DNA of 64,000 bases from an uncultured Verrucomicrobiae bacterium (GTDB lineage: Bacteria; Verrucomicrobiota; Verrucomicrobiia; Chthoniobacterales; JAFAMB01): NCBI GenBank assembly GCA_963762565.1, contig CAVXLD010000003.1, forward strand, positions 911,672 through 975,671, given 5' to 3'. Shown piece by piece: positions 15,819 through 36,312 of the stretch; positions within the stretch are counted from its first letter, which is position 1, and every line of letters begins with the position of its first letter. Both the position numbers and the translations under genes were made by a program. The notes beneath the pieces were generated by a model. The model saw only the letters and a program-made list of their open reading frames with translations, did not search any database and was not told where the DNA came from.

Positions 15819-16895
15819 TTAAATTTCCGGTTCCCGTTGTGAGCTTGTGCAAACCATCTCGAGCCTCTCGGTAATCATCCTTGAGATCCGGCCTGCCGCC
15901 GGAGGATCGAGGTTTGCTAGTACGACGACCAGATAGCCGATATCCGGAAACATCTCGAAGATACCATTCATCCCAATCGCGCCACCGCTGTGACCGACAC
16001 CCCGCAGACCGTTCACCGTTCGAGTTTCAAAGCCGTATCCATAGTGACTACCATGGTCCGTCTCGACCCTTCCAGCCGTGACCAATTCGGTGTAGTGAGC
16101 ATTCAGCAGTCTCTTGGCCTGTAAAGCGATGGCGAAACTCAAAAGGTCATGAACCGTTGAATAACCGCAGCCTGCTGAACTGCCGCGAAAGGGCAAGCTA
16201 GTGGTATTCGGACGCGGGTACGGCAAGGGAACTATATTAGAGCTCACCATCGTCCCAGCTGCACAGGTGTAACCGACGCTGCGATCAGGCACGAACTGAT
16301 CTTCCGGCTCGGAACCGCTAGACCGCATCTCCGCAGGGACATAGATATGGTCGCGGACATAGTCGTAGTAACTCTGACCGCTAACTCGCTCGATCACCAC
16401 GCCCAGTAGTATGTATCCGTAGTTACTATATTCCCAGCGGCTACCCGGCTCGAATCTCAATTTCCTGTCTGCATAAAGCATCACAAAGAAATCCTGCAGA
16501 GTGCGTAGCTCCAATCGATGAGCCTCGTATTCTGGGCCGAACAGATCACCGGTGCCTCCCGTGTGACTTAGTAATTGCTCAATTGTTACTTTCGACGCTG
16601 TCTCCTTATCCGGATAATCGGTTAAGTAGGCTCCTAAAGAAGCCACCAGCTGAAGTTTCCCGGCTTGCACGAGCTGTACGACCGCAACTCCGGTAAACAT
16701 CTTATTGATGGAACCAACTCGCAACCGGGTCTGAAGCGTATTCGGGATTCCCCGTTCACGATCAGCCAACCCATAAGCTTGGGCGAAAATGGGTTGTCCT
16801 CGCCTGGCAATTAATACCGCGCCAGAAAAGCGATCCTCAGCGCTCTCCTGGTCCAGCTTACAATGGAGGTCCGAAACCATTTCGTTCTCAGTCAT
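15819..16895 (-). CDS. Serine hydrolase, beta-lactamase-like family
   Basis: GSINK (SxxK), LLSHTGG, YSN, GHSG. Confidence 0.9.
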   Translation of the reverse strand: MTENEMVSDLHCKLDQESAEDRFSGAVLIARRGQPIFAQAYGLADRERGIPNTLQTRLRVGSINKMFTGVAVVQLVQAGKLQLVASLGAYLTDYPDKETASKVTIEQLLSHTGGTGDLFGPEYEAHRLELRTLQDFFVMLYADRKLRFEPGSRWEYSNYGYILLGVVIERVSGQSYYDYVRDHIYVPAEMRSSGSEPEDQFVPDRSVGYTCAAGTMVSSNIVPLPYPRPNTTSLPFRGSSAGCGYSTVHDLLSFAIALQAKRLLNAHYTELVTAGRVETDHGSHYGYGFETRTVNGLRGVGHSGGAIGMNGIFEMFPDIGYLVVVLANLDPPAAGRISRMITERLEMVCTSSQREPEI

Positions 16896-16912
16896 ACATT
16901 CGGCAGAAACAA

Positions 16913-17150
16913 ATAGCCCTGAAAAGGCACAAAAGGCGCGGAAAAAGCGGACAAGAATTTCAACAGAAGAACACAAAGGTCACAAAGATAAAAGATCACG
17001 CCAAGGGATTCTTACCGAAGGTAGCGAAGGCCTGAGGCTCAAGATTTCTAGCTTTCTTTAGAAGATCCTTCCTTCGTTACCTTCGTTTGCTTCTGTAAGA
17101 AATCTGTCTTCCGTTTTTTTTGCGCTTTTTGCGCCTCGTCGCGGCTATCG
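16913..17150. repeat. Nested inverted 9/10-mer-array element between the divergent beta-lactamase-family genes
   Basis: aaaaggcacaaaaggcgc..ttaccgaaggtagcgaagg mirrored by ccttcgttaccttcgtt..ttgcgctttttgcgcc. Confidence 0.7.
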
Positions 17151-17197
17151 CCTCTTACACGGTCTTGAACTCGGTACCTGGTCATGCTTGTTCCAGC

Positions 17198-18367
17198 ATG
17201 GTTCGTCGTACAAAGAGTATCGTTAGGGGAAACGTCCTTCTGGCCACCTGGCTATCCTCCGTGCTTAGCGCCGCGGCTGATAATCGACCGGATCCGATCA
17301 AGAGCATTGTGGATCGGGCAGTTCAACCTGTAATGCTGAACTACAGCATCGCGGGAATGGCGGTCGGTCTTACCGTTGCGGGCAAACAATACATCTTTAA
17401 CTATGGCGTCGCATCGAGGACGACTCGAAAACCGGTCACAAATGATACGCTGTTCGAGCTCGGATCGATCAGCAAAACATTCACCGCGACGTTAGCATCT
17501 TACGCCCAGGTCAGCGGATGCCTTTCCTTGGCAGATACTGCCAGCAAATATTTGCCCGATCTCCAAGGCTCTAAATTCGGGGACGTAACACTCCTCTATC
17601 TCGGCACGCACACGCCGGGAGGTTTTCCGTTGCAACTCCCGGAGAGCATACGAACAGAGGATGAATTGATGAGTTACTTGCGGGCATGGCAGCCCCGCTA
17701 CGCGCCAGGGACCTATAGAACGTATGCCAATCCTAGTATTGGTATGCTCGGCTTCATCACAGCGAAAAGCCTGGCTGGGGATTTTGCCGAATTGCTGCAA
17801 CAAAACGTGTTTTCCCCTTTAGGAATGAACAGCACGTATATTGACGTTCCTAAAACGAAGATGGCCGATTACGCGGTCGGCTATACCGAGGAAGGTGGTC
17901 CCACCAGGGAAGGAACGGACTTTCTATCGCGTGAAACCTATGGTGTTAGGACCACCGCCGCCGATATGCTTCGGTTTATCGATGCGAATATGGATTCGAG
18001 CAAGCCGGACGACAAACTGCAACGCGCAATCATCGATACCCACACTGCGTACTTCACCGCCGGAGTCATGACTCAAGACCTGATCTGGGAACAGTATGCA
18101 TATCCGGTCGACCTCAAGACTCTGTTGGATGGCAACTCGCCCACGATGATCTTCAAAGCGGCGCCGGCTACGCAATTAGCACCGCCACAGGAACCTCGGG
18201 AAGATGTGTGGGTGAACAAAACCGGTTCGACCAACGGTTTCGGAGCGTACGTGGCATTCATCCCCGCAAAACGGTTGGGAATCATCATCCTAGCCAACAA
18301 GAGTTATCCTATCGATCAACGAGTTACCATTGCGTATCAGATCCTGGAACAGCTGGCCGGTAAGTGA
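17198..18367 (+). CDS. ampC: Class C beta-lactamase
   Basis: FELGSISKTF, YANPSIG, NKTGSTNGFGAYVAF..ILANKSYP; signal peptide. Confidence 0.9.
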   Translation: MVRRTKSIVRGNVLLATWLSSVLSAAADNRPDPIKSIVDRAVQPVMLNYSIAGMAVGLTVAGKQYIFNYGVASRTTRKPVTNDTLFELGSISKTFTATLASYAQVSGCLSLADTASKYLPDLQGSKFGDVTLLYLGTHTPGGFPLQLPESIRTEDELMSYLRAWQPRYAPGTYRTYANPSIGMLGFITAKSLAGDFAELLQQNVFSPLGMNSTYIDVPKTKMADYAVGYTEEGGPTREGTDFLSRETYGVRTTAADMLRFIDANMDSSKPDDKLQRAIIDTHTAYFTAGVMTQDLIWEQYAYPVDLKTLLDGNSPTMIFKAAPATQLAPPQEPREDVWVNKTGSTNGFGAYVAFIPAKRLGIIILANKSYPIDQRVTIAYQILEQLAGK

Positions 18368-20976: not shown

Positions 20977-21101
20977 CCGGGAGGGATCGCGTCCCCCGCG
21001 ATCCTTTGTTAACGAAGTCGCGCACGTGTTGTTGTGGACGAAAATACACCTTCGGGTTGTGGCACGTCCTCGCGGCGCGCGGGGGCGCGCGCCCTCCCGG
21101 C
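20977..21101. repeat. REPIN-like doublet (family E), direct repeat of 18371-18497
   Basis: Same orientation, similar along the full ~125 bp. Confidence 0.8.
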
Positions 21102-21213
21102 TCCCCTCCTCGAACTCCTGAACTCCTCTCCGCTTGGGCGTTGCTGTAACGCCCAACCGGTGCTCGGCTCCCTCGCAAAGCAGAGCGTCGAATCCAAGCA
21201 GCTTATGGCCGCA

Positions 21214-24200
21214 TCAAATGTTCCACGAGTTCATGCCGACTAAGTTGCCATTGCTGTCGTAGATCGGTGACCAACCGCTGTAAGGGTCGCTGCCGTTCGG
21301 CACCAGGCCTGGCCAATAGGGCGTACCATTGCTTCCTGGGCCGCCATCGGTAGGATTATTATTATTAGGGTTATTGTTAGTGATTGTCTGTTATTGTTAT
21401 TGTCGCTACCGCCCGTACCACTACCGCCGTTGTTATTAGGATCCCCGTCGTTGTTGGGGCAGGACCCGCCGCCATTCTGACCGCCATTCTGACCACCGCC
21501 CTGATCTCCTTGACCACCACCCTGATCTCCTTGACCGCCGCTCTGTTGATTGCCACTGGGAATGTTGCTCTGCCAGGGACCTTGACCGATTTGGATTGCG
21601 CTGCCAGGGACATTGACCGTTTGTATTGGTTCCCAAGTTACCACCACTCCCGGTATTGGTTCCCCAGTTACCACCACTGCCGTTATTGGTTCCCCAGTTA
21701 CCACCGCTGCCGGTATTGGTTCCCCAGTTACCACCACTGCCGGTATTGGTTCCCCAGTTGCCACCGCTGCCGGTATTGGTTCCCCAGTTGCCACCGCTGC
21801 CGGTATTCGTTCCCCAGTTGCCGCCGCTCCTGAAGTCGTTCCGTTGTAGTCGAGCCCGCTCCGGTCTATTCCGAACGTAGGTCTACCTCCGACGTACGCA
21901 TACAGATTGATCCCGCCTACTTCTCTAATTGGATCGCGATTTAACCAGCGCTTGAGCCCGTTATCGTAGGCGCGAGCAAGAGCAAAATGCAGTCCGCTCC
22001 GTTGATGATAGAACAGTCCTGCATACCCGATATCCGGATGAATCGTTCCATTAAATTCCGTCAATTCTCCATACAAGCCGTAATCAATCTGCGTCTGGAT
22101 CGTGCCAGTTATATCCGTCAAGTTACGGGTGCTACCCAGATGATCTTTCCCATAGAAATAGTCTGTCGCACCTTGCTTAAATCCTTGTGGAAAATATTCT
22201 TTTGTGATCGTACCTTTCGTGGTGCGTTGTTCCGCAAGGTTTCTACCCATCCAGACATACAGAGCGTTGCTGGAGGTCTTACTGTTGGTCGTCTCTGTCA
22301 GCTGTACTAACCGCCCAACGCCGTCATAGGTAAACGCCGTCGAGTTGCCGGTCCCTGCGTAGGCAATTCCGATCAGCCGGTTTGCGCCATCCCAGGTGTA
22401 GGTTAACGCCCCGGTCACCGTCTTCGGATTCGCAGAAACAGCGGCGATACCATTCAACGCATTCCCGTTGGCGTCGTAACCGATCGTGGTGCTACCCGAG
22501 CTTCCTGGAGTGATCGAGGTCACCTGATTCAGGCCATTAACCTGGTAGACGGCGCCTTGGAACGCTCCTAAGGTGCTGCTACTTATGACCTGTTTGAGGT
22601 TAATACCTGGGTCATAAGTATAGTTGCCCTGCCCCAAAGCCAGCCCGGTACCCGCCGTCGCCGTGGCGCTGAACGTCGACAGCTCGTTGTCAGCATCATA
22701 GGTCAAGTTCCAGGTTCCAGTACCATCTGCCGGGTTCGTCTGTTGCCAGCTCAGCATGTTGCCCATGGCGTCATACGTGTATTGATGGCTCAGCGTATTA
22801 CTGCCAGTTACCTGCTGCATCTCTTGCAACCAGAAATTTCCCGTCGCGCCATAGTACTGAAAACCGAACGTCTGTTTGTTCGGCTCGGTCAGCGTCTGCA
22901 GCATTGGAGTGGTACCCACATATTTATACGTCGACGTTCCTAGACCATTCGCCTGCTGCGTGACTCGCCCAATGGCATCGTAGGTGTAGCTTCGTTTATC
23001 CAGGGTACCCGCTGTATCGTAGATCAGATCCTCTACCACACGGCCTAATTGATCGTAGTTATGGTAAATTGTTCCATAACCAGCCGGCCTCACCTCCGCG
23101 TCGAGCTGCAGAGCTCCCAGCTGTCCAACGTTCCAATAACTGTAGGTCGTTGTCCCCGTTCCGTCCGTCATCGAAGCTAAACGCCGGAAGGCATCGTAGG
23201 TGAATGCCACCCCGGGAGTGGGCGCAGCATAAGTGACCTCACGAAGCAAATTATCAACCCCGCGGGTATAGGTGGTAGTTTGATTCTTGGCATCAACCAC
23301 AGAACTTAATCGACCGCCCAAGTCGTAATTGCAGTTCACCGTGGAGTTGTCGGGATAAATCTTTTGGATCAACCGTTCTTCCACGTCTCGCACAAAGGTA
23401 GTCGTGTTCCCATCTCCATCCGTGATCGCATCGAGCGAGCCGCATCCGCAGTAACTGAACTGAGTATCCCGCCCCAGAGGATCAATCACTTCGATCATCT
23501 GTTGCAGTGAATTGTATTTGTAGTGCGTAACGTTGTTCAGTCGATTGGTCCATTGAATCAGGCTCATCGCCTGGTATTGATAACTGTCGCTGGTGCCGTC
23601 CGGGTAACTGATCTTCGTGATGCGGTTCAGGTTGTCATAGCCATAGGTCTTGGTGAACCCGTCCGCGTCCGTATAGGTCAGGACTCTTCCGAAGGTGTCG
23701 TAAGTAAAACTTGCTTGGGTTCCGCTCAAAGCATTGACCACGTTCTGAAGTAGCCGTGCGTGTCGTAATTGTAGGTGGTCACCTCATGTTTGGCATCGGT
23801 GATCTTGGTGACCTCGCCAAAACTATTGTACTTGAAGTCCGTTATCTGGCCCGCTGCATCGGTGATTTGGGTGGGGCGATGCTGGGTGTTATACACCGCG
23901 GACATGGTAGTTTGATAGGTCGATCCATCCCATTGCTGGGTCTGGATTATATCGATCCCGTTCGGCGCGTAGGTGTACTGCGTGCTCCGTCCTGCCGGGT
24001 CTACAACCGCGGTAACGTTGGCCAGAGAATTATAACTGTATTGCGCGAGCTGCGTGGTCCCGCTTGCATCCAGCACTCTGCCAACCAGGGACGGTTTTCC
24101 AATGTAGACCCCGTTCTGGAACGCGGATTGGCCTTGCCCTGGGTAATTCCTCCAGACTCGGGATTCGAGCGCCTTACAGGTAGCTTCTAAAAGGCGCGAA

Positions 24201-26408
24201 GTCGATGCCCCATCAGGCGTATGCTGGAAATGGTAGACCATCGCCTCGGTGTAGACATAGGGCGCTACTGCCATCGCGTGCTGATCCCAGAAGAATGTAT
24301 CCCGGTAATTGAGGTACTCGTTAAAGAGGTCCATCCCCGACGGAACCAGAGAATCGCTAAATGGGTAATTGACATCCTGATTATACTCCACCCGGCTATG
24401 TCCGCCCGCGGGATCATAGATATCCACTGAGCGTCCCGTTCCGATGTCACCAAAGTTCTCAGCGAAATAGAATTGGGTTTTACCGTATGGCGTCGTCAGT
24501 TGATGAACAAGTCCGCCGTCGTACTCGAACTTCGATTGGATACCGACCACGTCCTTCGTACTAGACAACATTAGTGTCCCGTTAACGCTCGTATAAGTTA
24601 AATAAGCCGTGCGCCCGAAGGGGTCTGTCACTGACGTTATTTTGTAGTGGATCTGTTTTCAGCGCGTAATGTAGCTTTGTCACCTGCCCAATCGCGTCTT
24701 TCACACCTACTAACCGGTACTGGCTGTCGTAGGTGAATGTCAGCTTGTTTCCTTGGGGGTCTACGAGCTCGGTCAGGAAGACCTGCCGGCCGGGACCGTT
24801 GACGCCGTTCGGTTGCGCGTAAATCTCGGCCGAGCCGTCCGGAAAGAATCGTTCATAACTAGTGGCGGAGGTCAGCACCAGCGTGGTGTTGCTGACGACA
24901 TCCATGGCGTAAGTTTGGTTTGTCGTATTGTAGCCGCTAAAGGTGAGATAACCGCCACGTGGTGGAAACAGGTTCACATCGGCCCCGGGATTCGTTGGAT
25001 CATCCACTACGTAAGCCATCCAATCATGAACCCAGTTAGGCCCTAGATTCGAAAAGCTGAAGGTAGCAGGCTGGCCGTCCGCGCGTTGTTCATAACGCAC
25101 CGTAAACATCGAAGCAGGACCAACCGGCGGACTATATCCCTCCGGGGTATCGAACACGGTGAGACTAACTGCTTGTAATTTTACGTCGTAGTGAGCCATG
25201 CCCAAGCCGCCACCGCAGCCACAGCCTGGATCATCGCCCCCTTCGCCACCGGGCGCATTGTTGTTCGTCTGGCCGCAGCCCCACACACTGGCGACCTGAT
25301 CAGCCGCGAGGGAATGCCAACCGGCAGGCAATGGTCCTGACGGTACAAGAAAATAGCCGCTGGCTTCTGCATCCAGCGCTTTAGGTGTGACCCAGATATT
25401 GTTGTTGAAGGTGAGATCCTTAGAGAGGTACTTGCCGTTCTTCTCGGTAACCAAGGCCGCGTAGTGCCCCACTTTCCAGTGAATGACCGCCGGTGTAATC
25501 ACCGGTGCGCCGGGGTCGCGTTTGGCAATCTGGTATTTCATACCCGCGGCCAGGGCTAGGTTCTCAACCTGGACTAAGGAACACCCTTTGCTGGTCGATT
25601 CCTCCGCTGCGATCTTCTGGTCACCAGGGCCGGAGAGATGCTCGGTCGAACGAATCTCCGCCAGGGCTAACGGCCCGCAGCGGAAAGAGTGGGCCGGGTC
25701 ATGTTTCATCAGAGCGAGTGCATCCTTCAGATTGGTTACCTGCGCAGCGGCGCCACCTAGGAAATGACGCGAGGAAATCTCGCCCAACAGTTCTTCCAGT
25801 TGGCTGACCCTGCCTAAACGGGCGTACATTCGGCCTAGCTCGGTCACAGTCTGATTAACTAAGGCAACTGCCTCCGGGCCAGTTGCCGTTTTGCCTCCAT
25901 CCCACGCTTGTTCCCAAGCCACCAGGACTTTGGAATAATAACCCTGGAAATAGTAGATCTGGCCTAAGTTATACAGCAGCCCCACTCCCCACCGCGATTC
26001 CGGGTAACGTTCGCAGAAACTCGTCAGCGCCGATACATCGTCGGGATTGGTCCGGCTGGCATATTGGTGCAAAGCAACCGACAATTCCTTGTTCTCCTCC
26101 TTCGCTAAGGAGTCGGACAGCTTAGTCATCGGTACTAACGGCTCGCTAAATAAGCTGCATCGGATGACCTCGTCGTCGGTCGGGGTATCCGAAAGCTTAA
26201 ATCCAGACGGCGCCTCAACCTGTGGTACGGTTCGATTCACCGTCACGGTAGACGCCGGCGAGTTGTCGGTATTTATAGCGACCGATTTTGCTTGTGAATT
26301 TGCAGAATAACTATCCGCCGCTAACGCGTACAGCGGCCAGCCAAACAACGGCTGCGTAAGCATCAGAACAGTCGCTAAACCTCGCAGCGACCAAGAACTA
26401 TTTTTCAT
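21214..26408 (-). CDS. Secreted Rhs/YD-repeat protein: signal peptide, TPR-like, C39-like peptidase, Rhs core, repetitive tail; ~1730 aa, three apparent frameshifts (~24647, ~23749, ~21390)
   Basis: ORFs 24582-26408, 23726-24631 and 21240-23741 join through small indels; CGPLAL..HWKVGHY..D; many YD repeats; DHLGS, RAYD..RWLNRDPI..GGINLYAYV...DRSGL; an alternative frame gives a coherent end ..GWSPIYDSNGNLVGMNSWNI*. Confidence 0.85.
21623..21830. repeat. Seven 30-bp coding tandem repeats (V/A-V/A-TGEPIPA-x)
   Basis: gtattggttccccagttaccaccactgccg units at 21623, 21653 ... 21803. Confidence 0.95.
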
Positions 26409-26591
26409 AGAAAGACAGGGTTGACTTGAAAATTCAGGCAGGGTTCAACGCCTTTATCCAAATAGAAGGAGGAACGGCGTCGCATATACTGGCGAAAATG
26501 ACAAATAACAGATGACAGATGACAAATTTGGCTGACAATCGCGGGTCCGACTCGCCTACGGCAAACCGCTAACCGTTAGCCGCCAACCCGG

Positions 26592-27647
26592 CTAACCTCC
26601 GGTGATTTTGACAATCGCGACGGTCCAATTGTACATCTGGACGATATACGCGTACTTGCCGTTCGGGGTGATTGCCACAACACCGGGCGTTTGGCCGAGC
26701 GTGATAGGGCTCCCTACGATCGCATTGGTCGCAGTGCTGACCATCACAACGCTTTGAGCATTCTGATTAGGCACATAGAGATAAAGACCGTCCGGGGTAA
26801 GAGCGCTTTTTAACCAATAGTTGCCGAGTGTGCTCGTCGTGATTTGCACGGTCGCGGTAACCGTGTTGGTGGCGGTACTGATCACCGAAACCGCACCACT
26901 CCAGCACGTCACATACAGTTTTGTGCCGTCAGGCGAAAGCTTGATATCAGTTGGACCTGAAGCGACCGGTATCGGATCGCCGACGATTAGTTGAGTGGCG
27001 ACATCGATCTTGTCTACTGTGTTATCGGCGTAGTTAACTACGTAGGTGTACTTTCCCTTGTCTGCAAATACGAGACCGGACGGTTGGTCACCCGTCTGGA
27101 CCGGCTGCGGTAACACCGTGTTGTTCTTGAGGTCAATGACGACGCACTGGGCTTGGAAAAGGTCGCTTACCCAAGCCAAGGTGCTGGAAGGATTGATTCC
27201 GATATCATAGGGGTATAGCCCCATCCCCGAGAAGGTTCGGCCCAGGCTGGGGGTCGCGGTTGAAGCACCAACAATCTGGGAAACGTTTCCGGGCAAGGTC
27301 CAAACCCCGCCATTATAGTTGCCAGGGTCGGCCACCAACACCTGTTCTCCGTTCCGGGAGATAGCCAGATACTGTGGATTGCCGTCGAGTGCAATCGTAT
27401 TAGGTGCCACGGTATTCGTTGCTGTATCGATGACGTAAAGGGCATTATACGCGTTCGACGCGACATAGACGTATTTACCGTCCGGGGTTACGGCCATCCC
27501 CGCTGGCAGCGGGATTTCTACTGTTCCAATAACCGTATTGGTGGGTTGTGCGCTCACGGAAGGGATTACGGCTGCCAAGCATGCGGCGGCCGCCAGGGGC
27601 AAAACACTGCGCAGGATGCTGCGCCATCGACCATCTTGTCTTTTCAT
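26592..27647 (-). CDS. Secreted YVTN/YncE beta-propeller (paralog 3)
   Basis: Signal peptide; TPDGKYVYV, VIDTATNTV blades. Confidence 0.9.
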   Translation of the reverse strand: MKRQDGRWRSILRSVLPLAAAACLAAVIPSVSAQPTNTVIGTVEIPLPAGMAVTPDGKYVYVASNAYNALYVIDTATNTVAPNTIALDGNPQYLAISRNGEQVLVADPGNYNGGVWTLPGNVSQIVGASTATPSLGRTFSGMGLYPYDIGINPSSTLAWVSDLFQAQCVVIDLKNNTVLPQPVQTGDQPSGLVFADKGKYTYVVNYADNTVDKIDVATQLIVGDPIPVASGPTDIKLSPDGTKLYVTCWSGAVSVISTATNTVTATVQITTSTLGNYWLKSALTPDGLYLYVPNQNAQSVVMVSTATNAIVGSPITLGQTPGVVAITPNGKYAYIVQMYNWTVAIVKITGG

Positions 27648-27668
27648 AGAAAGGCTGATCTGAGACCA

Positions 27669-27692
27669 CCGCAGAATTCAGGAATTCTGCGG
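27669..27692. promoter_or_regulatory. Perfect 11-bp-arm inverted repeat just upstream of paralog 3
   Basis: ccgcagaattc-ag-gaattctgcgg. Confidence 0.5.
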
Positions 27693-28097
27693 CTACCCGA
27701 AAGAGATAGAGAAACCTCGGCGGATATACTTTGAGAAACGCGATCAGGCGCAACGGCCTCTCAAAAGGGCCGCATCGCAGCAGATGGCGCGTGCATCACC
27801 CATTGCGGAGGGGAGCCGCATTAGAGATCTGCCGACGTAGGATCGAGAAACGGTCTGTTGGGCGCCTCGCTGAAAGGCAGGGGCGACGGCGGCTCCCTAT
27901 GGGCGTGGCCACTGCCGACCAGCCTTCGCCAACTAACGTGTCGAGTAGGCGTTGAGCCCCGGGGCGTCGCGTTTATCCAAACCCGGAAACTGCGAACATT
28001 TTAGGCGTCGAGACCCGCCCCCAACTGCCACCCGGAATGCGACGCCCCTCCGTTCCACACGCCGATTGCGGGCCTTTCATTTATGACCCTAAAGACA

Positions 28098-28130
28098 GAA
28101 GCGAGGCCGCCCCTAGGCATGCCTCGCTTC
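28098..28130 (-). terminator. Hairpin downstream of paralog 2
   Basis: gaagcgaggc...gcctcgcttc; related hairpin at 29365-29398. Confidence 0.5.
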
Positions 28131-28223
28131 GCACAACGACCGATCACTTCTCTCAGTCTTTAGCAACCCGGTGGCCACGACGGCCTCGGCCCGCGGGCGC
28201 GTGACGGCGCCGCCCCAGCGCCT

Positions 28224-29216
28224 TCAGTTGATCTGGATTACCGACACGGTTCCATCGTACTCGTTCGATATGTAGGCGTACCTACCGCTGGGCGTAATTG
28301 CTGCCATGATCGGGACGTTACCGACCGTGATAGGTGATCCCATGAGTTTCCCGGTAACGGTATTCAGCACCACAACCGTATTACCTTCAATTAAGTTGCC
28401 ATTGGATAGCTGCCCAGCGTCCGGCACATAAAGGAATTTCCCGTTTGGAGTCACCGCTGGATAGACCAACAGGTTAGTCCCGTTAGGGCTCGTTACCGAG
28501 ATACTTTTGGTGACGGTATTGCTAGAGGTCGCGATCTCATAGATGGCGTCATTCGCGGCGATGTACACGTTGGCGCCATCCGGTGAAATCGCTATACCCG
28601 TGGCCACCGTAGCGATGGGGATGGTTGTGGACACCGTGTTGTTAGCGGTATCGATAACCGAGACGACGTTGCCATTCACCAGGTAAGCCTCGGTGCCGTC
28701 CGAGGTAAACACTACTTCAGTTGGAGTTCCTCCGACCGAGATCGGATTAAGCACAGTCCCGTTAGAAATCACGGTGACCGTGCCGTCCGAGGCATTAGGA
28801 ACATAGATCAGCGTCCCATTCGGGCTCACCGCTAAGTCATTGGGAATATTCCCGGTCGGATAAGTTGTCGTAATTTTCTTCCTCGACATCGAAATTACAT
28901 CGACAACATTGCCATCATTTGTCGAATAGAGTGTCTTCTCGTCAGGCGAAAACGCCAATCCGTTAGCTCCCGAAGGGTTCTCAACATTCGTGGGGAATGT
29001 AAACGAAACCGTGTTGGTGCTCACGTCGATGGCCGAAATATTGGCGCCGTTTGCGACATAGACATATTTACCACTTGGCCTGGCAATAATTGCCGAGGAC
29101 TGGCTGCCAACAGCGATTGTGGCGATAACAATGTTTTTTAAGTCAACGGTCTCCCTGGCGACAAGGGAGGATAAGCTTGCGCTCGTAATGATAAGAATAG
29201 ATAGAATGGCTTTCAT
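28224..29216 (-). CDS. Secreted YVTN/YncE beta-propeller (paralog 2)
   Basis: MKAILSILIIT signal peptide; YVYVAN, VIDTANNTV, YISNEYDGTVSVI. Confidence 0.9.
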   Translation of the reverse strand: MKAILSILIITSASLSSLVARETVDLKNIVIATIAVGSQSSAIIARPSGKYVYVANGANISAIDVSTNTVSFTFPTNVENPSGANGLAFSPDEKTLYSTNDGNVVDVISMSRKKITTTYPTGNIPNDLAVSPNGTLIYVPNASDGTVTVISNGTVLNPISVGGTPTEVVFTSDGTEAYLVNGNVVSVIDTANNTVSTTIPIATVATGIAISPDGANVYIAANDAIYEIATSSNTVTKSISVTSPNGTNLLVYPAVTPNGKFLYVPDAGQLSNGNLIEGNTVVVLNTVTGKLMGSPITVGNVPIMAAITPSGRYAYISNEYDGTVSVIQIN

Positions 29217-29268
29217 AGTTGTTGATTCGCCTGATTCAGAAATGAGGACCAAATCAAGCGTCAGGCCA

Positions 29269-29297
29269 TACAACGGAGAAAAACGAGCCGGGTTTCA
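29269..29297 (-). promoter_or_regulatory. ECF-type promoter TGAAAC-N16-CGTTGTA
   Basis: tgaaac ccggctcgtttttctc cgttgta, ~53 nt before ATG 29216; identical boxes at 30573-30601. Confidence 0.75.
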
Positions 29298-29364
29298 CAA
29301 AAGATAACAGCCCCTTATCATGTGGCCCTGCGGTGGTTTGGTATCCCGAGGGGACTAGCGCCAG

Positions 29365-29398
29365 AAGCGAGGCACGCTCCCCGCTGCGTGCCTCGCTT
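29365..29398 (-). terminator. Hairpin downstream of paralog 1
   Basis: aagcgaggcacgc...gcgtgcctcgctt 13-bp stem. Confidence 0.55.
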
Positions 29399-29426
29399 TT
29401 CACTAACCAAACGCTAATGCTCTAGC

Positions 29427-30518
29427 TCACTGAGCTGGCTTGATCTGGATGACCGAGACGGTGTCACCTCCGAAGTTGCTGCAATAAGCCAGGTTACCTG
29501 TCTTGGACATAGCAATCCAGGCCGGCCCAGTTCCGACGGTAATAGCACTTCCGACTTGTTTATAAGTGCCCGTACTAACGACAATGACCGTATTCCCGTA
29601 AGTAGTCCCGCTGGTATAATACTGGGGTACATACAAGTAGGCGCCGTTCGGTGTTATCGCCGGCACACTCGGAACTTCACCGGGCTCAAACGTCTTAACT
29701 ATGCTGTCACCCTTTATGACTGAAATCGTGGCCAGTTTGAAATTTGTGCAGTACACCAAGGCGTTTTTTGGATTCATCACGCAATACAATGGGTCGCCGA
29801 TGGTGGAAATGCTGTGCTCCACCTTTGAGGTAGCAGTATCGATCACATAAACGAATCCACTTCCGTCTTCGCAGGCATAGGCTAGGTCGCCATTCTTCGA
29901 AAACGTCGCCGAGGCGGCATGTTCGCCGATGGTGATTGCAGTCTTCACCGTCTCTGTGCTCGTCTCGATGACTGAGATAGTCCCGGACCCTTCATTGGCA
30001 ACGTATACCAATTTACCATTCGGGCTGATCGACACATACCGCGGGTTAGTACCGACGGTTATTGTTTTTTCGAGGGCCCCGGTGCTCGCGTTTAGGACGC
30101 TGATTGTCCCGGCGGAAACGTCATTGGATACATACAATTTTGTCCCATCCGGGGTAATCGCCATGCCGTCCGGGCTAGCGCCAACACTGGTAAAGGTGGT
30201 CGTCACCTTGTTCGTGGTGGTATCTATGACCGATATCGAGTTACCCAAATAGTTACCCACGTAAGCAAGATCGGCCGTCGGACTGAGAACAATCACGTGC
30301 GGCCCCGAACCGACATTGACGGTCGCCACGACCTTATTGGTAGGTGCGGTCTCTGTCGTGATTCCATCGGTCGTTTCTTCCGCGATCGCCCGACCGACCG
30401 GGCAGGCGACGAAGAGAACGGCAAGAGTCGGAAAGAGGAATTGTCTAATAAGTTTCAGCCGGATTGATCCGGTTCCCCTTTGTTGAGGCTCCGGAGAACG
30501 TATGTCATGCCTTTTCAT
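29427..30518 (-). CDS. Secreted YVTN/YncE beta-propeller (paralog 1)
   Basis: Signal-like LFPTLAVLFVA; YVGN/YVSN/YVAN blades; start taken at MKRH (30518). Confidence 0.88.
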   Translation of the reverse strand: MKRHDIRSPEPQQRGTGSIRLKLIRQFLFPTLAVLFVACPVGRAIAEETTDGITTETAPTNKVVATVNVGSGPHVIVLSPTADLAYVGNYLGNSISVIDTTTNKVTTTFTSVGASPDGMAITPDGTKLYVSNDVSAGTISVLNASTGALEKTITVGTNPRYVSISPNGKLVYVANEGSGTISVIETSTETVKTAITIGEHAASATFSKNGDLAYACEDGSGFVYVIDTATSKVEHSISTIGDPLYCVMNPKNALVYCTNFKLATISVIKGDSIVKTFEPGEVPSVPAITPNGAYLYVPQYYTSGTTYGNTVIVVSTGTYKQVGSAITVGTGPAWIAMSKTGNLAYCSNFGGDTVSVIQIKPAQ

Positions 30519-30572
30519 AATCTTTTTGGTGACGCCATCCGGAAATAAACGACCGAATCGGGCGTCAGGCCG

Positions 30573-30601
30573 TACAACGGAAAAAAGGGGACCGTGTTTC
30601 A
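30573..30601 (-). promoter_or_regulatory. ECF-type promoter TGAAAC-N16-CGTTGTA
   Basis: tgaaac acggtccccttttttc cgttgta, ~55 nt before ATG 30518. Confidence 0.75.
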
Positions 30602-30837
30602 GAGAAAAAAGATGGGGGGCGAGGCTCCGGCGCTTCCTCAAGGGCCACGCAAGGCGATTGTTGTTCCGAAACCCCGTAACGGACAGCGCCGCAGGGCTGC
30701 CGAGCCGGACCCAGCGCATGCCATCGTCGATTGGCGCCCATTGATTAACTACCTGCCGGAACTGAGTCCTCGCGGCGCGCGGGGACGCGCGCCCTCCCCG
30801 ATTTGCACCCTGCGGAGAGCAAAGTCCGGCTTCGCGC

Positions 30838-33800
30838 CTAGCTCGGTTTCAGCTCCTCAACCAGCCTCTCACATTTCTTGGTGAACGGATGATCTTGACC
30901 CAAGATCTTGCGTGCACCCTGTGCTGCCCTTTGGGCTAACTCATTTGCCTCTTGAGTCTTGTTCTGAGCCCGCACGCATTGCGCCAGATTGAAACAGGTC
31001 TGGAGTGTGTCCGGGTGTTCAACACCGAGTACTTTCTCTCTCAGTTTGAGCGCCTGGCGATACTCCACCTCGGCTTCATCATGTTTACCTTGGTGCTCGA
31101 GGGCGGTGGCCAGATTATCGCGCGTATGCAGGGTGCTCGGTTCTTCAGGCCCGGCTACCTTCTCCTGCAGCTGGAGCACGGCGCCGTCTTCCGTTTCTGC
31201 CTCTACGGATTTGCCTTCTTCATCCAGCACAAAGGCAAGCTGGCTACGCGTTACCAACGTATCCGGGTGCTCAGGGCCGAGCACTTTTTCTCGAAGTTGG
31301 AGCACGGCGCGGTCTTCGGCTTCGGCTTCGGTCTGTTTGCCTTCGTCATCCAATACCACGGCAAGATCGGTTCGCGCCAAAAGCGTGTAGGGATGTTCGC
31401 GACCAAACACTTTGTCGTCGAGCGCGATCACCGCACGAGCTTCGGCTTCGGCCTCAGCGTACTTGCCTTCGAAGCCCAGCACTTCAGCCAGGCTGGTGCG
31501 GACTAACAAGGTGCCCGGATGCTCAGGACCATACACCTTCTCTTTCAGCTTAATTAAAGTACGGTCCTCCGCTTCAGCCTCGGCGTATTTGCCCTCGTCA
31601 GCCAGCCCCGCTGCCAGATTACTCCGGCCCATCAGCGTGTCAGGATGTTCAGGACCAAGGACTCGTTCCCGAAGTCTCAATACCTCGCGATCCTCGGCCT
31701 CGGCTTCTGCCCGCTTATTTTGCTCATGCAACATAACGGCCAGATCTCCGCGGGTAACCAATGTGTCCGGGTGCTCAGGGCCTAGCACTTTCTCCTGTAA
31801 TTTGAGCACCGCGCGACACTCGGCTTCAGCCTCTGGCCATTTGCCCTGGTAATTGAACGCGAGGGCCAGATCCATCCGCATTTTCAAGGTGTCAGGATCA
31901 TCAGGTCCCAGCACCTTTTCGCTGATCTTCAGCGCTGCGCGACACTCGGCCTCGGCCTCTGCATACTTGCCCTGATCCAGAAGCGCAGCCACCAGGTTTT
32001 TTCGGGTTTTCAGGGTTTCAGGACTCTCGGCGCCGAGAACCTTTTCTTGCAGACTGATGACCGCTCTGTCCTCATTTTCGGCCTCAGCGTTCTTGCCTTG
32101 AACCCAGAGAACGACTGCCAGCCAGTAGCAAGCTTTCAACGTATCGGGATTCTCCGGACCCAGTACGTGTTCTCGCTCCGCTATCACTTCACGAAGCAGT
32201 TGTTCGGCGTCGGAATACTTTCCTTGATCATTCAGGACGACGCCAATCGCGAATTGCACCCGGGCCCACTCTACCGGGTCGCGGCTGCGGTCGGTGAGTT
32301 TCTCGGCAGAATCCAGTCGCAGCAACGCCTCGGCATAGTCAATGCGGTTCTCGGCCGCCAACGCAGCCAGCTCAAAAGCCTTAATCGCTTCCGTCTTCTT
32401 TGGCGGGGTCGCGCCCTGAGCTTCATCAGCGGCAACCAAGGCGAGGCGTTCGGCTTCGTTGTAGTCCTTGGCAACATAAGCAGCACTGGCTCGTTCGTAG
32501 GTTGTTGAACCGGGCGCGCGTTTTAGCTGTTCGGCAAACCGCGGCAGTTGCTTCTCCACCAGGGCCGCATCTAATCCATATTGTTTTGCTAATTCCTCAA
32601 TGACCCGGGTCCGGGCTGCGTCCGGATCTAGTTTTGTTTGGGCTTGCCGCTGATCAGCTTCCTTTTGTGGAAATTGGGTGATCATCTGGCCCATCGCTTC
32701 GCGGATCTCGGCCAATTGACGGCTTTGTTCATTCTGCCGCCCCATGATCCAAAGCACCAGACCTCCCCCTATCGCCAGCGCCACTAGCAAACCAGCACCA
32801 ACCAGCCACTTTGAAATTGGTTTACGACGCCGAGGCCACCAGAATGGCGACCATTTTCCGCCGGCCCGCTTCACCGGCGCCAGCCACTCGACGGTTGAAT
32901 GCAAATTGGCCTTGCTCAGATGCCTCCCCGATTCCACCGCCTGGTTGACGATCTTGATCGCCTTGATTAGCTCGGCTGGTCTCTGAAATCGAGCCGCCGG
33001 ATTTTTCTCGAGCATTACCTCAAGCAATGCTTCGACGGGTTGCGGAACTTTCGACAAAGCCGCCAGCGGCAAGTCCCCATGCTGGTGTTGGTAGACCAAT
33101 TCGGAGCCGGAACCCTTAAAGGGCAGTTCACCGGTCAGCATTTCCCAAAGCGTAATCCCCAGCGAGTACAGATCCGAACGGATGTCTACACCGACGCCGG
33201 AGAACTGTTCTGGGCTAGCGTATGCCGGGGTTCCGGCGAATGAACCCGGTATCGATAGTCCCCTGGATTCTGTTTCATCGAGCGATTTCGCTAATCCGAG
33301 GTCGATAATTTTGACACTCTCGATCTCGCCTCCTTCGCGATTCACCATGATGTTACTCGGTTTAAGGTCGCGATGAACCAGGTGATTCTTCTGGATCGCG
33401 CTCAGGCCATTCGCCACTTGCGACACGATCTCCAATGCCTCCGGAACGCTCAAATGGGCCGGTTGGCTCAGGATCCGTTCCAGGGTTTCGCCTGAAACAA
33501 ATTCCATGGCGTAAAAGTAATTCTCGCCAGTTTTTCCAAGATGAAACACGCTGGCGACATTGGAATTTCGTACTGCGGCGGCCGCTCTGGCTTCCCGGAC
33601 AAAACGGGCGCGAGCGGAGTCGTCCTGAACATAGCGAGAACTGATTACCTTTAAGGTGACGGGGCAGTGAAGTTCGACATCGATGGCTTTGTAAGTAACC
33701 CCCATGGCGCCGCTCCCCAATTCCATCGGTTTGCCATCGTCGCCTACCATGATTTCGTAGTGCCCAAACCGCAGGTCGCCCGGCCGGTTCGCTGCGTCTT

Positions 33801-33945
33801 CGGCCGGCAAAGCGGGCTTTTCCGGCTCCTCTGCTTTTGCCTCGGCATCACCGGGCTCTAAAGCCGCGCGCAAAACGCAGACCGGACAATACACGCGGTC
33901 GTCGTCGAGCAGCTTTCCGCAGGTTGGACAAGCTTTCGTAGTCAC
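30838..33945 (-). CDS. Membrane Ser/Thr protein kinase with an N-terminal CxxC..CxxC motif and C-terminal 42-aa TPR repeats
   Basis: LGSGAMGVTYKA, HRDLKPSN, DLGLA, GTPAYASPEQ, DLYSLG; TM helix; about 11 LGPEHPDTL-type repeats. Confidence 0.95.
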   Translation of the reverse strand: MTTKACPTCGKLLDDDRVYCPVCVLRAALEPGDAEAKAEEPEKPALPAEDAANRPGDLRFGHYEIMVGDDGKPMELGSGAMGVTYKAIDVELHCPVTLKVISSRYVQDDSARARFVREARAAAAVRNSNVASVFHLGKTGENYFYAMEFVSGETLERILSQPAHLSVPEALEIVSQVANGLSAIQKNHLVHRDLKPSNIMVNREGGEIESVKIIDLGLAKSLDETESRGLSIPGSFAGTPAYASPEQFSGVGVDIRSDLYSLGITLWEMLTGELPFKGSGSELVYQHQHGDLPLAALSKVPQPVEALLEVMLEKNPAARFQRPAELIKAIKIVNQAVESGRHLSKANLHSTVEWLAPVKRAGGKWSPFWWPRRRKPISKWLVGAGLLVALAIGGGLVLWIMGRQNEQSRQLAEIREAMGQMITQFPQKEADQRQAQTKLDPDAARTRVIEELAKQYGLDAALVEKQLPRFAEQLKRAPGSTTYERASAAYVAKDYNEAERLALVAADEAQGATPPKKTEAIKAFELAALAAENRIDYAEALLRLDSAEKLTDRSRDPVEWARVQFAIGVVLNDQGKYSDAEQLLREVIAEREHVLGPENPDTLKACYWLAVVLWVQGKNAEAENEDRAVISLQEKVLGAESPETLKTRKNLVAALLDQGKYAEAEAECRAALKISEKVLGPDDPDTLKMRMDLALAFNYQGKWPEAEAECRAVLKLQEKVLGPEHPDTLVTRGDLAVMLHEQNKRAEAEAEDREVLRLRERVLGPEHPDTLMGRSNLAAGLADEGKYAEAEAEDRTLIKLKEKVYGPEHPGTLLVRTSLAEVLGFEGKYAEAEAEARAVIALDDKVFGREHPYTLLARTDLAVVLDDEGKQTEAEAEDRAVLQLREKVLGPEHPDTLVTRSQLAFVLDEEGKSVEAETEDGAVLQLQEKVAGPEEPSTLHTRDNLATALEHQGKHDEAEVEYRQALKLREKVLGVEHPDTLQTCFNLAQCVRAQNKTQEANELAQRAAQGARKILGQDHPFTKKCERLVEELKPS

Positions 33946-34709
33946 TCCAACTGGCCGTCCGAAGCGATTAGTGCGTCACAGAGAGCATGAATTTCTTCAT
34001 CTACGGTTGCGGGATCGCTGACCGTCCGTGAGACTTCCTCCCGCAAAATTTCGCTGTGTCTCTTTCGAAAACGATGAATGAGGGTTTTCGCGCCGCCGAG
34101 GGTACCTTGGAGTTGCCTGGCAACTTCCTCGTAAGAAGGTAACTCTTTACTATTCTTGGGATCTAGAAATGGTTGTAGCGTGTCGAACAGTGATTTCTTA
34201 CCCTGTGAGGTATACTCGACCCGGAGGCGGTCGATTACATGGGTTAACAGAGTCAGTGCCCAGCGCGCATCAAACGCGCTTTCGGCATTCAGTGGGTTAG
34301 CGGTCTCTCCAAGATAACGTTCTTCGCCGCTTTCCAGGTCAATGCCAACAAACTCGATGTGCCCACCGCGCTTAACACTGTTTGTCCGATCAAACGCGTC
34401 GTTCAGGTAGTTTTTCAATGACACCAAAAGGAACGAACGGAACTTTCCTTTTTCGGGGCTGACCTTTCTCAACGATTTCCGTTCAAGGAGACTCAGGAAG
34501 AACCCTTGGGTCGAATCTTCAGCGTCCTGAGCGCTATACCCTCGGCGTCGCACGAAAGCGTAGAGCGGATACCAATAAAGACGACAAAGATCTGCGAGGG
34601 CCGATTGCGAACCCGGAAGCTGACTTTGTGCGGACAACAAAACAGCGCTCCAGTTCGTTGTTCGGAACTCACCTGCTTGCACACCAGCCAGGCTCTCGGT
34701 TCGGCTCAT
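33942..34709 (-). CDS. ECF sigma-70 factor (kinase-associated type)
   Basis: FRTTNWSAVL, LCRLYWYPLYAFVRRRG..DAEDSTQGFF, GKFRSFL; 4-nt overlap with the kinase start. Confidence 0.92.
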   Translation of the reverse strand: MSRTESLAGVQAGEFRTTNWSAVLLSAQSQLPGSQSALADLCRLYWYPLYAFVRRRGYSAQDAEDSTQGFFLSLLERKSLRKVSPEKGKFRSFLLVSLKNYLNDAFDRTNSVKRGGHIEFVGIDLESGEERYLGETANPLNAESAFDARWALTLLTHVIDRLRVEYTSQGKKSLFDTLQPFLDPKNSKELPSYEEVARQLQGTLGGAKTLIHRFRKRHSEILREEVSRTVSDPATVDEEIHALCDALIASDGQLE

Positions 34710-34776: not shown

Positions 34777-34975
34777 GTGAGAAGTGAGAAGTGATTGGTG
34801 ATTGGTGATTGGTGATTGGTGGGGAAGCGGCCCTCGTCCGGTGAAAGGTGAAAGGCACCCGCTCGGGAGGGAGTTGCATTCTGGGTCGGAAAAAGCGCGA
34901 GGCGCTGCGACCCTTTCCATGAGATGCTTGCACCGCCTCTCACCTTTCACTTCTCACTTCTCACTTTTCACCTTC
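34777..34975. repeat. Inverted 7-mer-array element
   Basis: gtgagaa/gtgattg/gtgaaag arrays ... ttctcac/tttcacc arrays. Confidence 0.8.
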
Positions 34976-36312
34976 CCCTCGCCTGGCGCGTTCAATGAAA
35001 CCCGCATGATAAGGGCTGCCGAGGGATGCGCGCCGGGCTTCAGGTTGCCGTGATAATCAATCACGTCCCAGCCAGAATTGGCAATGTAGTAAAAATCGTC
35101 ACCTACGACGACGCCGTGCGTTGGGTCGCCCAGGCTGTCGGTTGAACGTTCGATTATCGTCTCAGCTATAATTTTCGTGAGAGCTGAGTCCAGTTGAAAA
35201 ACAACAACGCGTTCGGGGGATGTGCCGTTTTGGACCGCGAGCAACTTCTGACCGTCTAGATACAGGCCATCAATACCATTGAGAGCAAAACGATCTTCAG
35301 TACTCAACCAGCGGACCTGTTTAGTACTAACTTCCAGGACACCGATCCCGCGTAAATAATCAGGCACGAAAATTTTCTTTCCGTCCTCATAAGAGGCCGG
35401 CGTTTGGGGCGAAATAAAATCGCCCGCGTCCAGGCGTTCTAATCCCTCGTTGCTTTCCTTTACTCGGTAGACGCCGCCCCCGTCACCATCGCTGATGATC
35501 ACGTCCCCGTCAGGCGCCAGCGTCATATCACCTAGAGCGCTGCCGCGCGGTCCTTCAATCCGGTGCAAGAGCTTACCGGTTGTCAGGTCATAACAAAGCA
35601 CTGCGGATCTACCCCAATCCGATTCCGACACGAACACAAAGCCCCGTAGCGCCACCTCAGTAGCCCATATGAGGTTTCGCTTGGGATCGATCTTGATGGC
35701 TAGTAGCGGCCAATCATCGGGCGCCTTGGCAAACTCGTTAATGGCGCCGTCGAAATCTGCCGAGATTATCTTCTTCCCGCGAACCGTCGTAATGAAGAAC
35801 CGCTTTGTGTTCGCGTCGTAGTCTAAATCCTCTGGCAGCAAGGCCGGTTCCGACAAATGTAACGCGGTTCTACCCAGCGAAATCGCGACCCGGTTCTTTG
35901 CCATGCCATCCTGGACCTTTGCGAATTCGGGTTGTTTGCGAAGCAGAGCAAATTCGGATGACTCAGTCAGCAGATCTGTGGATTGGCCCATCTGAACAAA
36001 CTTTTCCAGGTCGGAAAAGGCGCCAGCAAAGTCGCCGGTGTGTACTTTGGCTCGAACGAGCTCAAGGATTGAGTCCGGCGCTCCGTTCAGCAGTTCCACT
36101 AAATTCTTGGCGCCGGCCACGCTGCCAGACCAATCGTGATTCTTGCGAGCGGTCTGCAATTTCCCCTGAATCGATCGAAAATCAGCAATCGCGGTGTCCG
36201 CGCGGGATGAGAGTGAAGACGTGATCAGGCAGAGGAAGAGCGCGTTCCGAAAATAGCAAATAAAGGAGTTCAAGGGGAATTGGGGCAACGGAGTGTTGAA
36301 GTATTGCAGCAA
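34954..36312 (-). CDS. Secreted protein with an SMP-30/NHL-like beta-propeller; start uncertain
   Basis: PEDLDYD, LGDMTLAPDGDVIISD, GIDGL..LLAVQNG, DPTHG. Confidence 0.75.
   Translation of the reverse strand: MLQYFNTPLPQFPLNSFICYFRNALFLCLITSSLSSRADTAIADFRSIQGKLQTARKNHDWSGSVAGAKNLVELLNGAPDSILELVRAKVHTGDFAGAFSDLEKFVQMGQSTDLLTESSEFALLRKQPEFAKVQDGMAKNRVAISLGRTALHLSEPALLPEDLDYDANTKRFFITTVRGKKIISADFDGAINEFAKAPDDWPLLAIKIDPKRNLIWATEVALRGFVFVSESDWGRSAVLCYDLTTGKLLHRIEGPRGSALGDMTLAPDGDVIISDGDGGGVYRVKESNEGLERLDAGDFISPQTPASYEDGKKIFVPDYLRGIGVLEVSTKQVRWLSTEDRFALNGIDGLYLDGQKLLAVQNGTSPERVVVFQLDSALTKIIAETIIERSTDSLGDPTHGVVVGDDFYYIANSGWDVIDYHGNLKPGAHPSAALIMRVSLNAPGEGKVKSEK

Follow-up and report, generated by a model that had tools for sequence, protein, structure and literature searches.

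A conserved, predicted secreted pair of a YVTN propeller and an Rhs protein next to a kinase-linked ECF sigma factor module in an uncultured Verrucomicrobiae bacterium

A 64,000-nucleotide stretch of the genome (G000) of an uncultured Verrucomicrobiae bacterium (contig CAVXLD010000003.1, positions 911,672 to 975,671; hereafter, the window) carries six genes, all on the minus strand, for an extracytoplasmic function (ECF)-like sigma factor, a Ser/Thr kinase with a transmembrane (TM) segment and a tetratricopeptide repeat (TPR) array, three YVTN propellers, and an Rhs protein. These six genes are two modules that are unrelated neighbors: the sigma factor, the kinase, and propellers 1 and 2 (module 1), and propeller 3 and the Rhs gene (module 2). 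The latter is a conserved two-gene unit whose products, judged by their N-termini, are predicted to be secreted. In our favored reading, to which we assign a probability of roughly 0.55, the Rhs protein would be processed by its C39 peptidase and by its core, its tip would be disordered and nontoxic, and the propeller would be its surface-binding partner. A first-pass annotation of the same DNA had correctly recognized the six co-oriented genes and had proposed that all of them form a single inducible system; this proposal is not supported, since the modules are separate in a congener (G004) and at close Rhs loci.

Results

Propeller 3 (26592 to 27647) is encoded next to the Rhs gene (21214 to 26408, about 1,730 aa). 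A search for the Rhs family returned 846 matches, and twelve proteins at 64 to 75% identity form a distinct Rhs clade with 100% support in a quick tree from which L013 was left out. After removal of three duplicates, nine distinct clade loci remained, three in G004 and six metagenomic, and in each of them the Rhs gene is immediately preceded by a YVTN gene in the same orientation, in varied flanking contexts. This agrees with the earlier idea of a Sec-type YD shell combined with a separately encoded propeller. The 12 propellers encoded next to an Rhs gene all belong to one clade of 14 (99% support, quick tree), which includes propeller 3 and leaves out propellers 1 and 2. Furthermore, among the 43 family genomes, the Rhs N-terminus and propellers of the propeller 3 type are found in the same two, with one further weak fragment in G007, and the three propeller 3-type matches of G004 are its three Rhs-adjacent genes. 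The pairwise identities of the Rhs proteins and of the propellers co-vary (Spearman 0.66, Mantel p 0.0002). A sigma/kinase pair of the kind present here was found at none of the nine close Rhs loci, several of which lie on contigs too short for a distant upstream view. In the neighborhood check that the first-pass annotation had suggested, Rhs and the propeller 3 type go together in relatives, but the sigma/kinase pair and propeller 1 were not seen at the same loci as these two.

The arrangement upstream of the Rhs gene is not uniform. At L036, L039, and L023, which belong to one sub-lineage, a different, divergently transcribed ECF sigma gene lies upstream of the propeller, with anti-sigma-like and CHAT-like neighbors (named by eye). 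At L034 and L024 (L038), the Rhs-upstream gene encodes a 525-aa protein, in which an N-terminal domain of about 190 residues is fused to the propeller, and a second propeller gene precedes it. As for the three propellers of the locus, all exceed the cut-off of TIGR02276, have hydrophobic N-termini, and share 27 to 35% identity. Their earlier description as secreted YncE paralogs agrees with the YVTN repeats and the N-termini, but they are not YncE orthologues, for the equivalog model NF052280 scored far below its cut-off with all three.

In nature the Rhs gene is unbroken. Single-base errors of the assembly divide it into three open reading frames (ORFs; 24582 to 26408, 23726 to 24631, and 21240 to 23741), with further frame switches in the tip, and read contigs restore the frame at most of the breaks. 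These contigs stem from four runs of two studies; three of the runs belong to a single study and might cover the source sample itself. Single-base differences between the assembly and the read contigs lie near 21823 (two of four runs), near 23747 (three of four), and at 24645 to 24647 (all four), and runs X1 and X2 have frame-restoring net changes in the tip region (21069 to 21588). One more break, near 21590, was deduced from the 31-nt repeat period, and no read-contig row shows it. On the strength of the read contigs we reject a pseudogene and, together with the homologues being single ORFs, also programmed frameshifting. The first-pass annotation had listed an Rhs gene with a signal peptide; the gene is present and the signal peptide is discernible by eye, but it stays below the hydrophobicity threshold used, and in the assembly the gene is three ORFs.

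The predicted layout of the protein is a signal peptide, a TPR domain, a C39 peptidase, a YD shell, an Rhs core, and a Gly/Asn-rich tip. A phmmer comparison of the N-terminal domain with solved structures returned nothing significant. An AlphaFold2 (AF2) model that covers mature residues 1 to 673 of the homologue L033 (83 to 88% identical to the Rhs protein; pLDDT 88.8, pTM 0.89) folds into a TPR bundle, a C39 double-glycine peptidase, and the Rhs plug and shell (Z 21.6 to 8qja). By this model, the TPR-like helical domain would be encoded at 25707 to 26096 (VIA Z 7.9 to the TPR of YbgF) and the C39 domain at 25335 to 25691 (Z 10.4, root mean square deviation 2.7 over 117 residues to 6mpz). The C39 triad (codons Cys 25679, His 25466, and Asp 25418) is invariant in 120 of 120 sequences; PF03412 (C39) passes in some homologues and has no match on the locus Rhs itself. 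From the alignment and the C39 substrate consensus, the linker after the C39 domain (25272 to 25310) resembles a double-glycine leader and is a candidate site for cleavage in cis: in all 13 rows of the clade, positions −12, −7, and −4 are hydrophobic and −2 is Gly, position −1 being Cys, as at the locus, or Lys, and hydrophobic residues at the former three positions with Gly at −2 are the pattern reported for C39 substrates (PMC10885120). The YD/RHS repeat array exceeds the cut-offs of PF05593 and TIGR01643. By alignment, the socket segment of the shell (22374 to 22541) comprises a YD hairpin of its own and a clade-specific loop. The Rhs-associated core (21855 to 21950; TIGR03696, 59 bits versus a cut-off of 32.5) contains the two-aspartate autocleavage motif described in PMC13018210. 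The L033 model has no in-chain propeller, and no propeller family matched the Rhs protein.

The tip (21214 to 21854; about 210 aa, taken through with X at the frame breaks) matched no toxin family. It consists to 81% of G/S/N/Q/T/P, has an entropy of 3.09 bits, and contains seven copies of a 10-residue Gly-Asn-Trp-Thr repeat; by composition, entropy, and tandem repeats it does not resemble a folded toxin domain. Nine of 10 clade proteins have a low-complexity tip; in the outgroup, 13 of 99 do. Among the 109 scored homologues the tips are unrelated in sequence, that is, a variable tip sits on a conserved carrier. At L039 (about 60% identical), the last 18 residues or so are nearly the same as those of the corrected locus tip. 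A tightly coupled downstream ORF is present at 25 of 29 immunoglobulin (Ig)-type loci of the family, at none of five clade relatives, and behind 540 of 1,360 background ORFs (40%). In this respect, the Ig-type loci look like classical toxins. The mostly low-complexity tips of the clade and its loci without a coupled ORF agree with the earlier suggestion that the locus probably does not serve classical toxin warfare. Downstream of the locus Rhs there is a doubtful ORF with a TTG start, which we discount as an immunity gene: it crosses a dispersed repeat, overlaps a convergent GH3 gene, and is broken by an 8-nt deletion in run X2.

At L037, two small genes (L037:10885-11769 and L037:11843-12649) lie 3′ of the clade Rhs and combine a signal-like N-terminus with the last 65 or so residues of the Rhs core and a low-complexity tip. 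A weak search of only 27 candidates found no relatives of these genes. To our knowledge, ordinary orphan Rhs cassettes have no export signal.

An AGTATAT-type motif lies about 82 nt before the Rhs start (26482 to 26490) and has a twin before propeller 3 (27722 to 27730). Similar motifs are present at several orthologous loci, and they differ from the motif before propellers 1 and 2. As a dedicated regulon signal the motif was rejected: 11 of its 303 sites lie before genes, similar to controls, and it is not enriched genome-wide.

In the wider Rhs family, sequence comparison makes it likely that the shell and the neighboring protein complement each other by a strand or a hairpin. In a discovery set of the first 25 or so outgroup loci, the neighboring protein is in most cases large and secreted and carries either of two end motifs, and one position near the end of the shell varies to match the motif. 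A test set comprised 38 new loci, with criteria fixed beforehand; 28 were callable, and the ten others (contig ends or broken genes) are excluded from the counts. An Ig insert of 100 to 120 residues is present in 19 of the 28 shells, and in four of five cases it aligns to PF09136 only from profile position 18 to 21 of 83. The gene upstream of such shells ends in a motif like a first Ig strand in 16 of 19 cases, the misses being one broken upstream gene and two variant ends, and in none is there a YD donor; L059 of the discovery set is a further exception. Conversely, in all seven hairpin-less shells the mature N-terminus of the neighbor is a YD hairpin (six by hidden Markov model [HMM], L078 by eye), and none has an Ig donor. 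Two shells with a hairpin of their own have neither donor. Hence, no crossover between socket type and donor type was seen among the callable test loci. Pattern-based socket calls failed or misassigned several loci, and L070, L080, L084, L085, and L088 were set by eye; the cut-off of the donor HMM (E < 0.05) was chosen after its output had been seen, and the preset pattern likewise gave 16 of 19, with L082 replacing L067. Neither socket type forms one clade (a quick tree requires 8 and 5 changes, of which at least 2 are forced), and L083 and L060, a strongly supported sister pair, differ in both socket and partner. Because kin are not independent, we give no p value for this rule; what chiefly speaks for it is that the neighbor supplies the very piece that the shell lacks.

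The Ig-strand donors (L005, L007, L009, L040, L041, L052-L057, L064, and others) are large secreted multidomain proteins with a C-terminal motif of about 20 residues, that of L064 having RCC1, LamG, FN3, and TSP3 domains. The YD-hairpin donors (L001, L002, L004, L008, L012, L013, L054, L060-L062, L065, L066, L070, L078, and L098) are large Ig/LamG proteins, and their genes often occupy the usual position of the immunity gene.

The clade of the locus belongs to this family by its Rhs N-terminus and has neither type of socket and donor. Its socket has its own hairpin and a conserved extra loop, a 29-column stretch that is the largest difference from the outgroup. In the alignment with the outgroup, the clade shell shows no gap into which the end of a propeller could fit (threshold, a deletion of at least 5 columns), and the clade propellers contain neither the Ig-strand nor the YD-hairpin donor motif. 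The propeller thus appears to hold the partner position of the family, and its docking, if any, must differ from the donor mode.

Kinase-linked ECF units of this kind are expanded in the lineage, and module 1 is an ordinary one of them. The gene of the ECF-type sigma factor (33942 to 34709; orthologue 85% identical in G004) overlaps the kinase gene (30838 to 33945) by 4 nt, as had been noted before, and the kinase has one strong TM segment (residues 379 to 402) between the kinase domain and the TPR array. Most of the genome's nine related sigma genes adjoin a kinase gene. Like the kinase-associated ECF groups (ECF43 with EcfP/PknT and EcfK/PknS; ECF59-62, 217, and 283; PMC8999054, PMC7826278), the sigma gene is encoded together with, and overlaps, a gene for a membrane Ser/Thr kinase and has no anti-sigma gene next to it. 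In this respect the first-pass comparison with EcfP/PknT stands; however, PMC8999054 defines ECF43 by replacement of the DAED motif with a phosphorylatable Ser/Thr motif, and the sigma factor retains DAED at residues 62 to 65. By that definition it is not EcfP-like, and the EcfP mechanism is not directly transferable; it may instead be ECF59-like.

An ECF-type promoter motif, TGAAAC-N16-CGTTGTA (30573 to 30601; at the same position in G004), precedes propeller 1 (29427 to 30518; the likely start is 30518, not 30719). A second copy, identified by motif comparison (29269 to 29297), precedes propeller 2 (28224 to 29216; likely start 29216), which is absent at the G004 sigma locus and is placed in module 1 by its promoter. 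The motif lies in an upstream block of about 50 nt that is common to propellers 1 and 2 and occurs nowhere else in G000. It matches 33 times, in 17 of the 43 family genomes; the reversed control gives 8 matches. In G004, the sigma factor (85%), the kinase (73%), the motif, and propeller 1 (71%) are found together without propeller 2, propeller 3, or Rhs, and three of four motif matches precede propellers; eight other sigma-orthologue loci had no propeller or Rhs match. Taken from the motif, the sigma factor is probably the cognate one and would drive the secreted propellers from this promoter.

In other genera, TGAAAC-N16-CGTTGTA is found in front of an unannotated secreted protein as well, one that recurs among them (L101, L106, L119, L121, and L125). 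In G019 (L138) it lies just after a related sigma-kinase pair, and L099-L128 outline a candidate ECF regulon. The ECF/kinase part is ordinary for the lineage, yet it points to a candidate promoter of a kinase-linked sigma group that is so far unstudied.

The host genome (6.1 Mb, 93.7% complete) has one Rhs core, two secretins (profile search), 24 YVTN-like ORFs, 9 sigma factors related to that of the locus, and 32 kinase ORFs. Because YVTN, sigma, and kinase genes are this abundant and the gaps among the locus genes measure 180 to 580 nt, co-orientation is weak evidence for a single system. No match to VgrG OB-fold, Hcp, PAAR, or VipB (PF04717, PF05638, PF05488, and PF05943) was found in the whole 93.7%-complete genome, which extends the absence of a type VI secretion system (T6SS), VgrG, and PAAR noted before from the window to the genome. 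Scans for sigma-70 promoters and terminators were at chance level (9 versus 9.1 and 16 versus 17.3), and a simple scan found no terminator-like site in the minus-strand gaps. The soil metagenomes that contain the sequence suggest a soil habitat for the bacterium; RNA data sets were absent from the listed holders, which has no bearing on expression. The nearest homologue with a name bears the label Verrucomicrobia.

Elsewhere in the window, 4870 to 7641 encodes a fused YVTN/NHL propeller and phosphoesterase, another propeller protein, and 14845 to 18367 a NusG paralogue followed by two divergent serine hydrolases of the beta-lactamase family. Upstream of the sigma gene lies a gene for an unannotated secreted protein (34954 to 36312), a 27% identical paralogue of which adjoins another sigma/kinase pair (G000 C11:200670-205876). 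Intergenic gaps hold dispersed repeats of short length and arrays of 7-mers in tandem, all at very high read depth, at 20977 to 21081, 26495 to 26527, 30766 to 30814, and 34777 to 34970, and about 200 nt (27825 to 28025) are skipped in the contigs of three runs.

Discussion

In our favored reading of module 2, propeller 3 and the Rhs protein would exit the cytoplasm by Sec, as their N-termini suggest, and one of the two secretin systems may be their route to the outside. The C39 domain, with its intact triad and the leader-like motif behind it, is somewhat more likely than not to cut in cis at the linker, thereby releasing a TPR-C39 prodomain from the shell; given the noncanonical −1 residue, we put this forward as a hypothesis only. 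By homology, the aspartyl motif of the core probably severs the tip inside the shell. The tip itself, by its composition, is fairly likely to be disordered, a Gly/Asn/Gln/Pro polymer and not an enzymatic toxin, and such a nonenzymatic polymer would need no immunity gene. With the propeller the model becomes tentative: co-inheritance suggests that it may fill the accessory slot of the family as the surface-binding partner of the shell, at slightly less than even odds, perhaps by docking on the clade-specific loop at the socket. Likely roles are adhesion, the building of a matrix or aggregate, or the protected export of an aggregation-prone peptide.

Several points weigh against this reading. 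The ten loci of the pairing amount to about four sub-lineages of a single clade, and adjacency alone can explain the co-divergence of Rhs and propeller. Two propellers of the same clade lie far from any Rhs in G000, at C3:192218 and C3:870445; the latter (C3:870445-871503; 67% identical to propeller 3) stands alone about 60 kb from the locus, with no adjoining Rhs. Because the clade shell is complete and the propellers have no donor motif, the docking mode of the family is not directly applicable, and the missing in-chain propeller is no argument for a partner in trans, because the Rhs proteins of T6SSs have none either. Residue −1 of the proposed C39 site is Cys or Lys instead of Gly, Ala, or Ser, and residue −7 is mostly Gly in the outgroup. 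As to the tip, the clade member P0007/L034 has an ordinary, folded-looking one, also without a downstream ORF, and at the locus the ORF with the TTG start (123 aa) begins 57 nt downstream of Rhs.

The first of these points lead to the explanation that we regard as unlikely but that survives best: the two genes would be co-inherited and co-expressed without forming a lasting complex, the propeller being either an independent secreted binder or a helper that assists folding transiently in the periplasm, and the shell being self-contained. The shell, with its own socket hairpin, misses nothing, each gene has its own upstream motif, the gaps reach 400 nt, and same-clade propellers stand alone in G000. 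However, the pairing holds at 10 of 10 loci across 60 to 87% Rhs identity and in several contexts, and in other members of the family the adjacent gene encodes a fitted partner.

The tips invite a different explanation, namely, that the Rhs protein is a disarmed polymorphic toxin that has lost its toxin tip and immunity gene, whose tip drifts by repeat slippage with selection acting at most on the shell. The tips are unrelated repeats of 44 to 210 aa, the module has a patchy distribution, with 2 of 43 family genomes containing it, one X2 contig is nearly identical in the shell and has many differences around the end of the tip, and the Ig-type relatives retain folded tips and immunity-like neighbors. 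We nevertheless consider decay of this kind quite improbable, since both protease motifs are intact, the tip end is nearly shared between L039 and the locus, and L037 keeps its two stand-alone genes with signal peptide, core, and low-complexity tip, though no relatives of these were found.

That a kinase-activated sigma factor switches on all three propellers and the Rhs gene as one inducible six-gene system is very unlikely. All six genes are co-oriented, read-through from the propeller 1 and 2 promoters is conceivable as the minus-strand gaps have no terminator-like site, and sigma or kinase genes of some kind occur near L001, L006, L008, L070, and L084 (and a different ECF at L036/L039). 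On the other hand, sigma, kinase, and propeller 1 occur without Rhs in G004 and Rhs without them at the close loci, the upstream motifs differ, propellers 1 and 2 are outside the Rhs-linked clade, and sigma/kinase pairs are abundant in the lineage. Finally, it is hardly credible that the tip acts as a toxin of an unconventional, amyloid-like or membrane-active kind, with the upstream propeller as its periplasmic immunity or neutralizing protein. In favor of this, every characterized relative that the searches returned is a toxin carrier or a teneurin, and the Trp-spaced Gly/Asn repeats presumably recall prion-like sequences. Against it, immunity proteins are specific to their tips, but the propellers follow the phylogeny of the shell, and the tips are alike in composition and mutually unrelated in sequence.

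Sec- or type II secretion system-exported RHS polymorphic toxins, some with an N-terminal inactive transglutaminase (papain-fold) domain, have been described (Zhang et al. 2012, PMC3482391). They share with the locus Rhs a signal peptide, a papain-fold domain before the RHS repeats, the Rhs core, and a variable tip; unlike them, the locus protein has a C39-like domain with an intact triad, a low-complexity tip, no credible immunity gene, and a separate accessory gene. In the accessible text of that paper, Tox-PL-C39 is treated as a toxin domain and not as an N-terminal processing domain.

The bacterial teneurin-like proteins (TLPs; BiTLP, PDB 9ifo) have an NHL propeller and adhesion domains in the same chain, and their tips are toxins with immunity genes (PMC13018210); Verrucomicrobiota are outside the six TLP phyla listed in the accessible part of that paper. 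Like TLPs and metazoan teneurins, the locus system is predicted to combine a Sec-exported, plugged YD shell, autoprocessing at both the N- and C-terminal sides, and an association with a beta-propeller and adhesion domains, but its propeller is of the YVTN type and is encoded by a gene of its own. Indeed, the Rhs protein does not unite a fibronectin plug, an NHL propeller, and a YD shell in one chain, and residues 336 to 669 of the L033 model align to TLP residues 708 to 1424 over 241 residues, about 330 residues standing against about 710 in TLPs and teneurins.

The closest shell and plug structures are T6SS Rhs effectors (RhsA 7q97, Tse5 8cp6, RhsP 8h8b, and Tre23 7pq5; VIA Z 18 to 22), which also share the aspartyl motif of the core; in contrast to them, the locus protein has no PAAR/VgrG region, starts with a signal peptide, TPR, and C39, and belongs to a genome in which no T6SS markers were found. 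The BC component of Tc/ABC toxins demonstrates that two polypeptides can build one YD container. It resembles the Rhs protein in its YD shell (Z 10 to 16), but here a single chain forms essentially the whole shell, and the partners in the relatives give only a hairpin or one Ig strand; an A component was not seen in the vicinity, though no search was aimed at one. The C39 peptidases of PCAT/AMS transporters (LahT 6mpz and ComA 5xe8) have the same fold (Z about 10, 117 residues), Cys-His-Asp, and the downstream linker pattern; the C39 domain of Rhs differs in that it is not fused to an ABC transporter, is predicted to be exported, has its candidate substrate in cis, and faces a noncanonical −1 residue. 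N-terminal C39 domains are also known from giant Omnitrophota proteins (bioRxiv 2023.11.21.568195), and proteins with C39 and RHS are already labelled in databases. A literature search, with subscription papers and supplements (including the architecture lists of PMC3482391) outside its scope, found no description of the architecture, the donor motifs, or the Rhs-YVTN pairing.

How Rhs/YD shells are displayed and aimed without T6SS or Tc machinery is raised as an open question in PMC13018210 (2026). To the display of the shell, the family gives a concrete answer, a fitted partner that would donate exactly the missing element, and the novelty rests mainly on this socket-and-donor pattern and on the apparently nontoxic clade. 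The locus adds an Rhs lineage with an apparently nontoxic cargo, which, if true, would be a rare natural repurposing of a toxin container. Taken together, a broader picture is possible, although we hold it to be doubtful as a whole: Verrucomicrobiota would possess a modular Rhs platform that is Sec-exported and C39-matured and whose wall has one position that a separately encoded adhesin complements with either an Ig strand or a YD hairpin, and within it the clade of the locus would have given up toxin and immunity, closed its socket with a hairpin and loop of its own, taken a YVTN propeller as partner, and turned to the export of disordered, polymer-like peptides. If this picture is true, bacteria would have turned a weapon to functions in adhesion or matrix, which echoes the origin of teneurins, but with separate chains.

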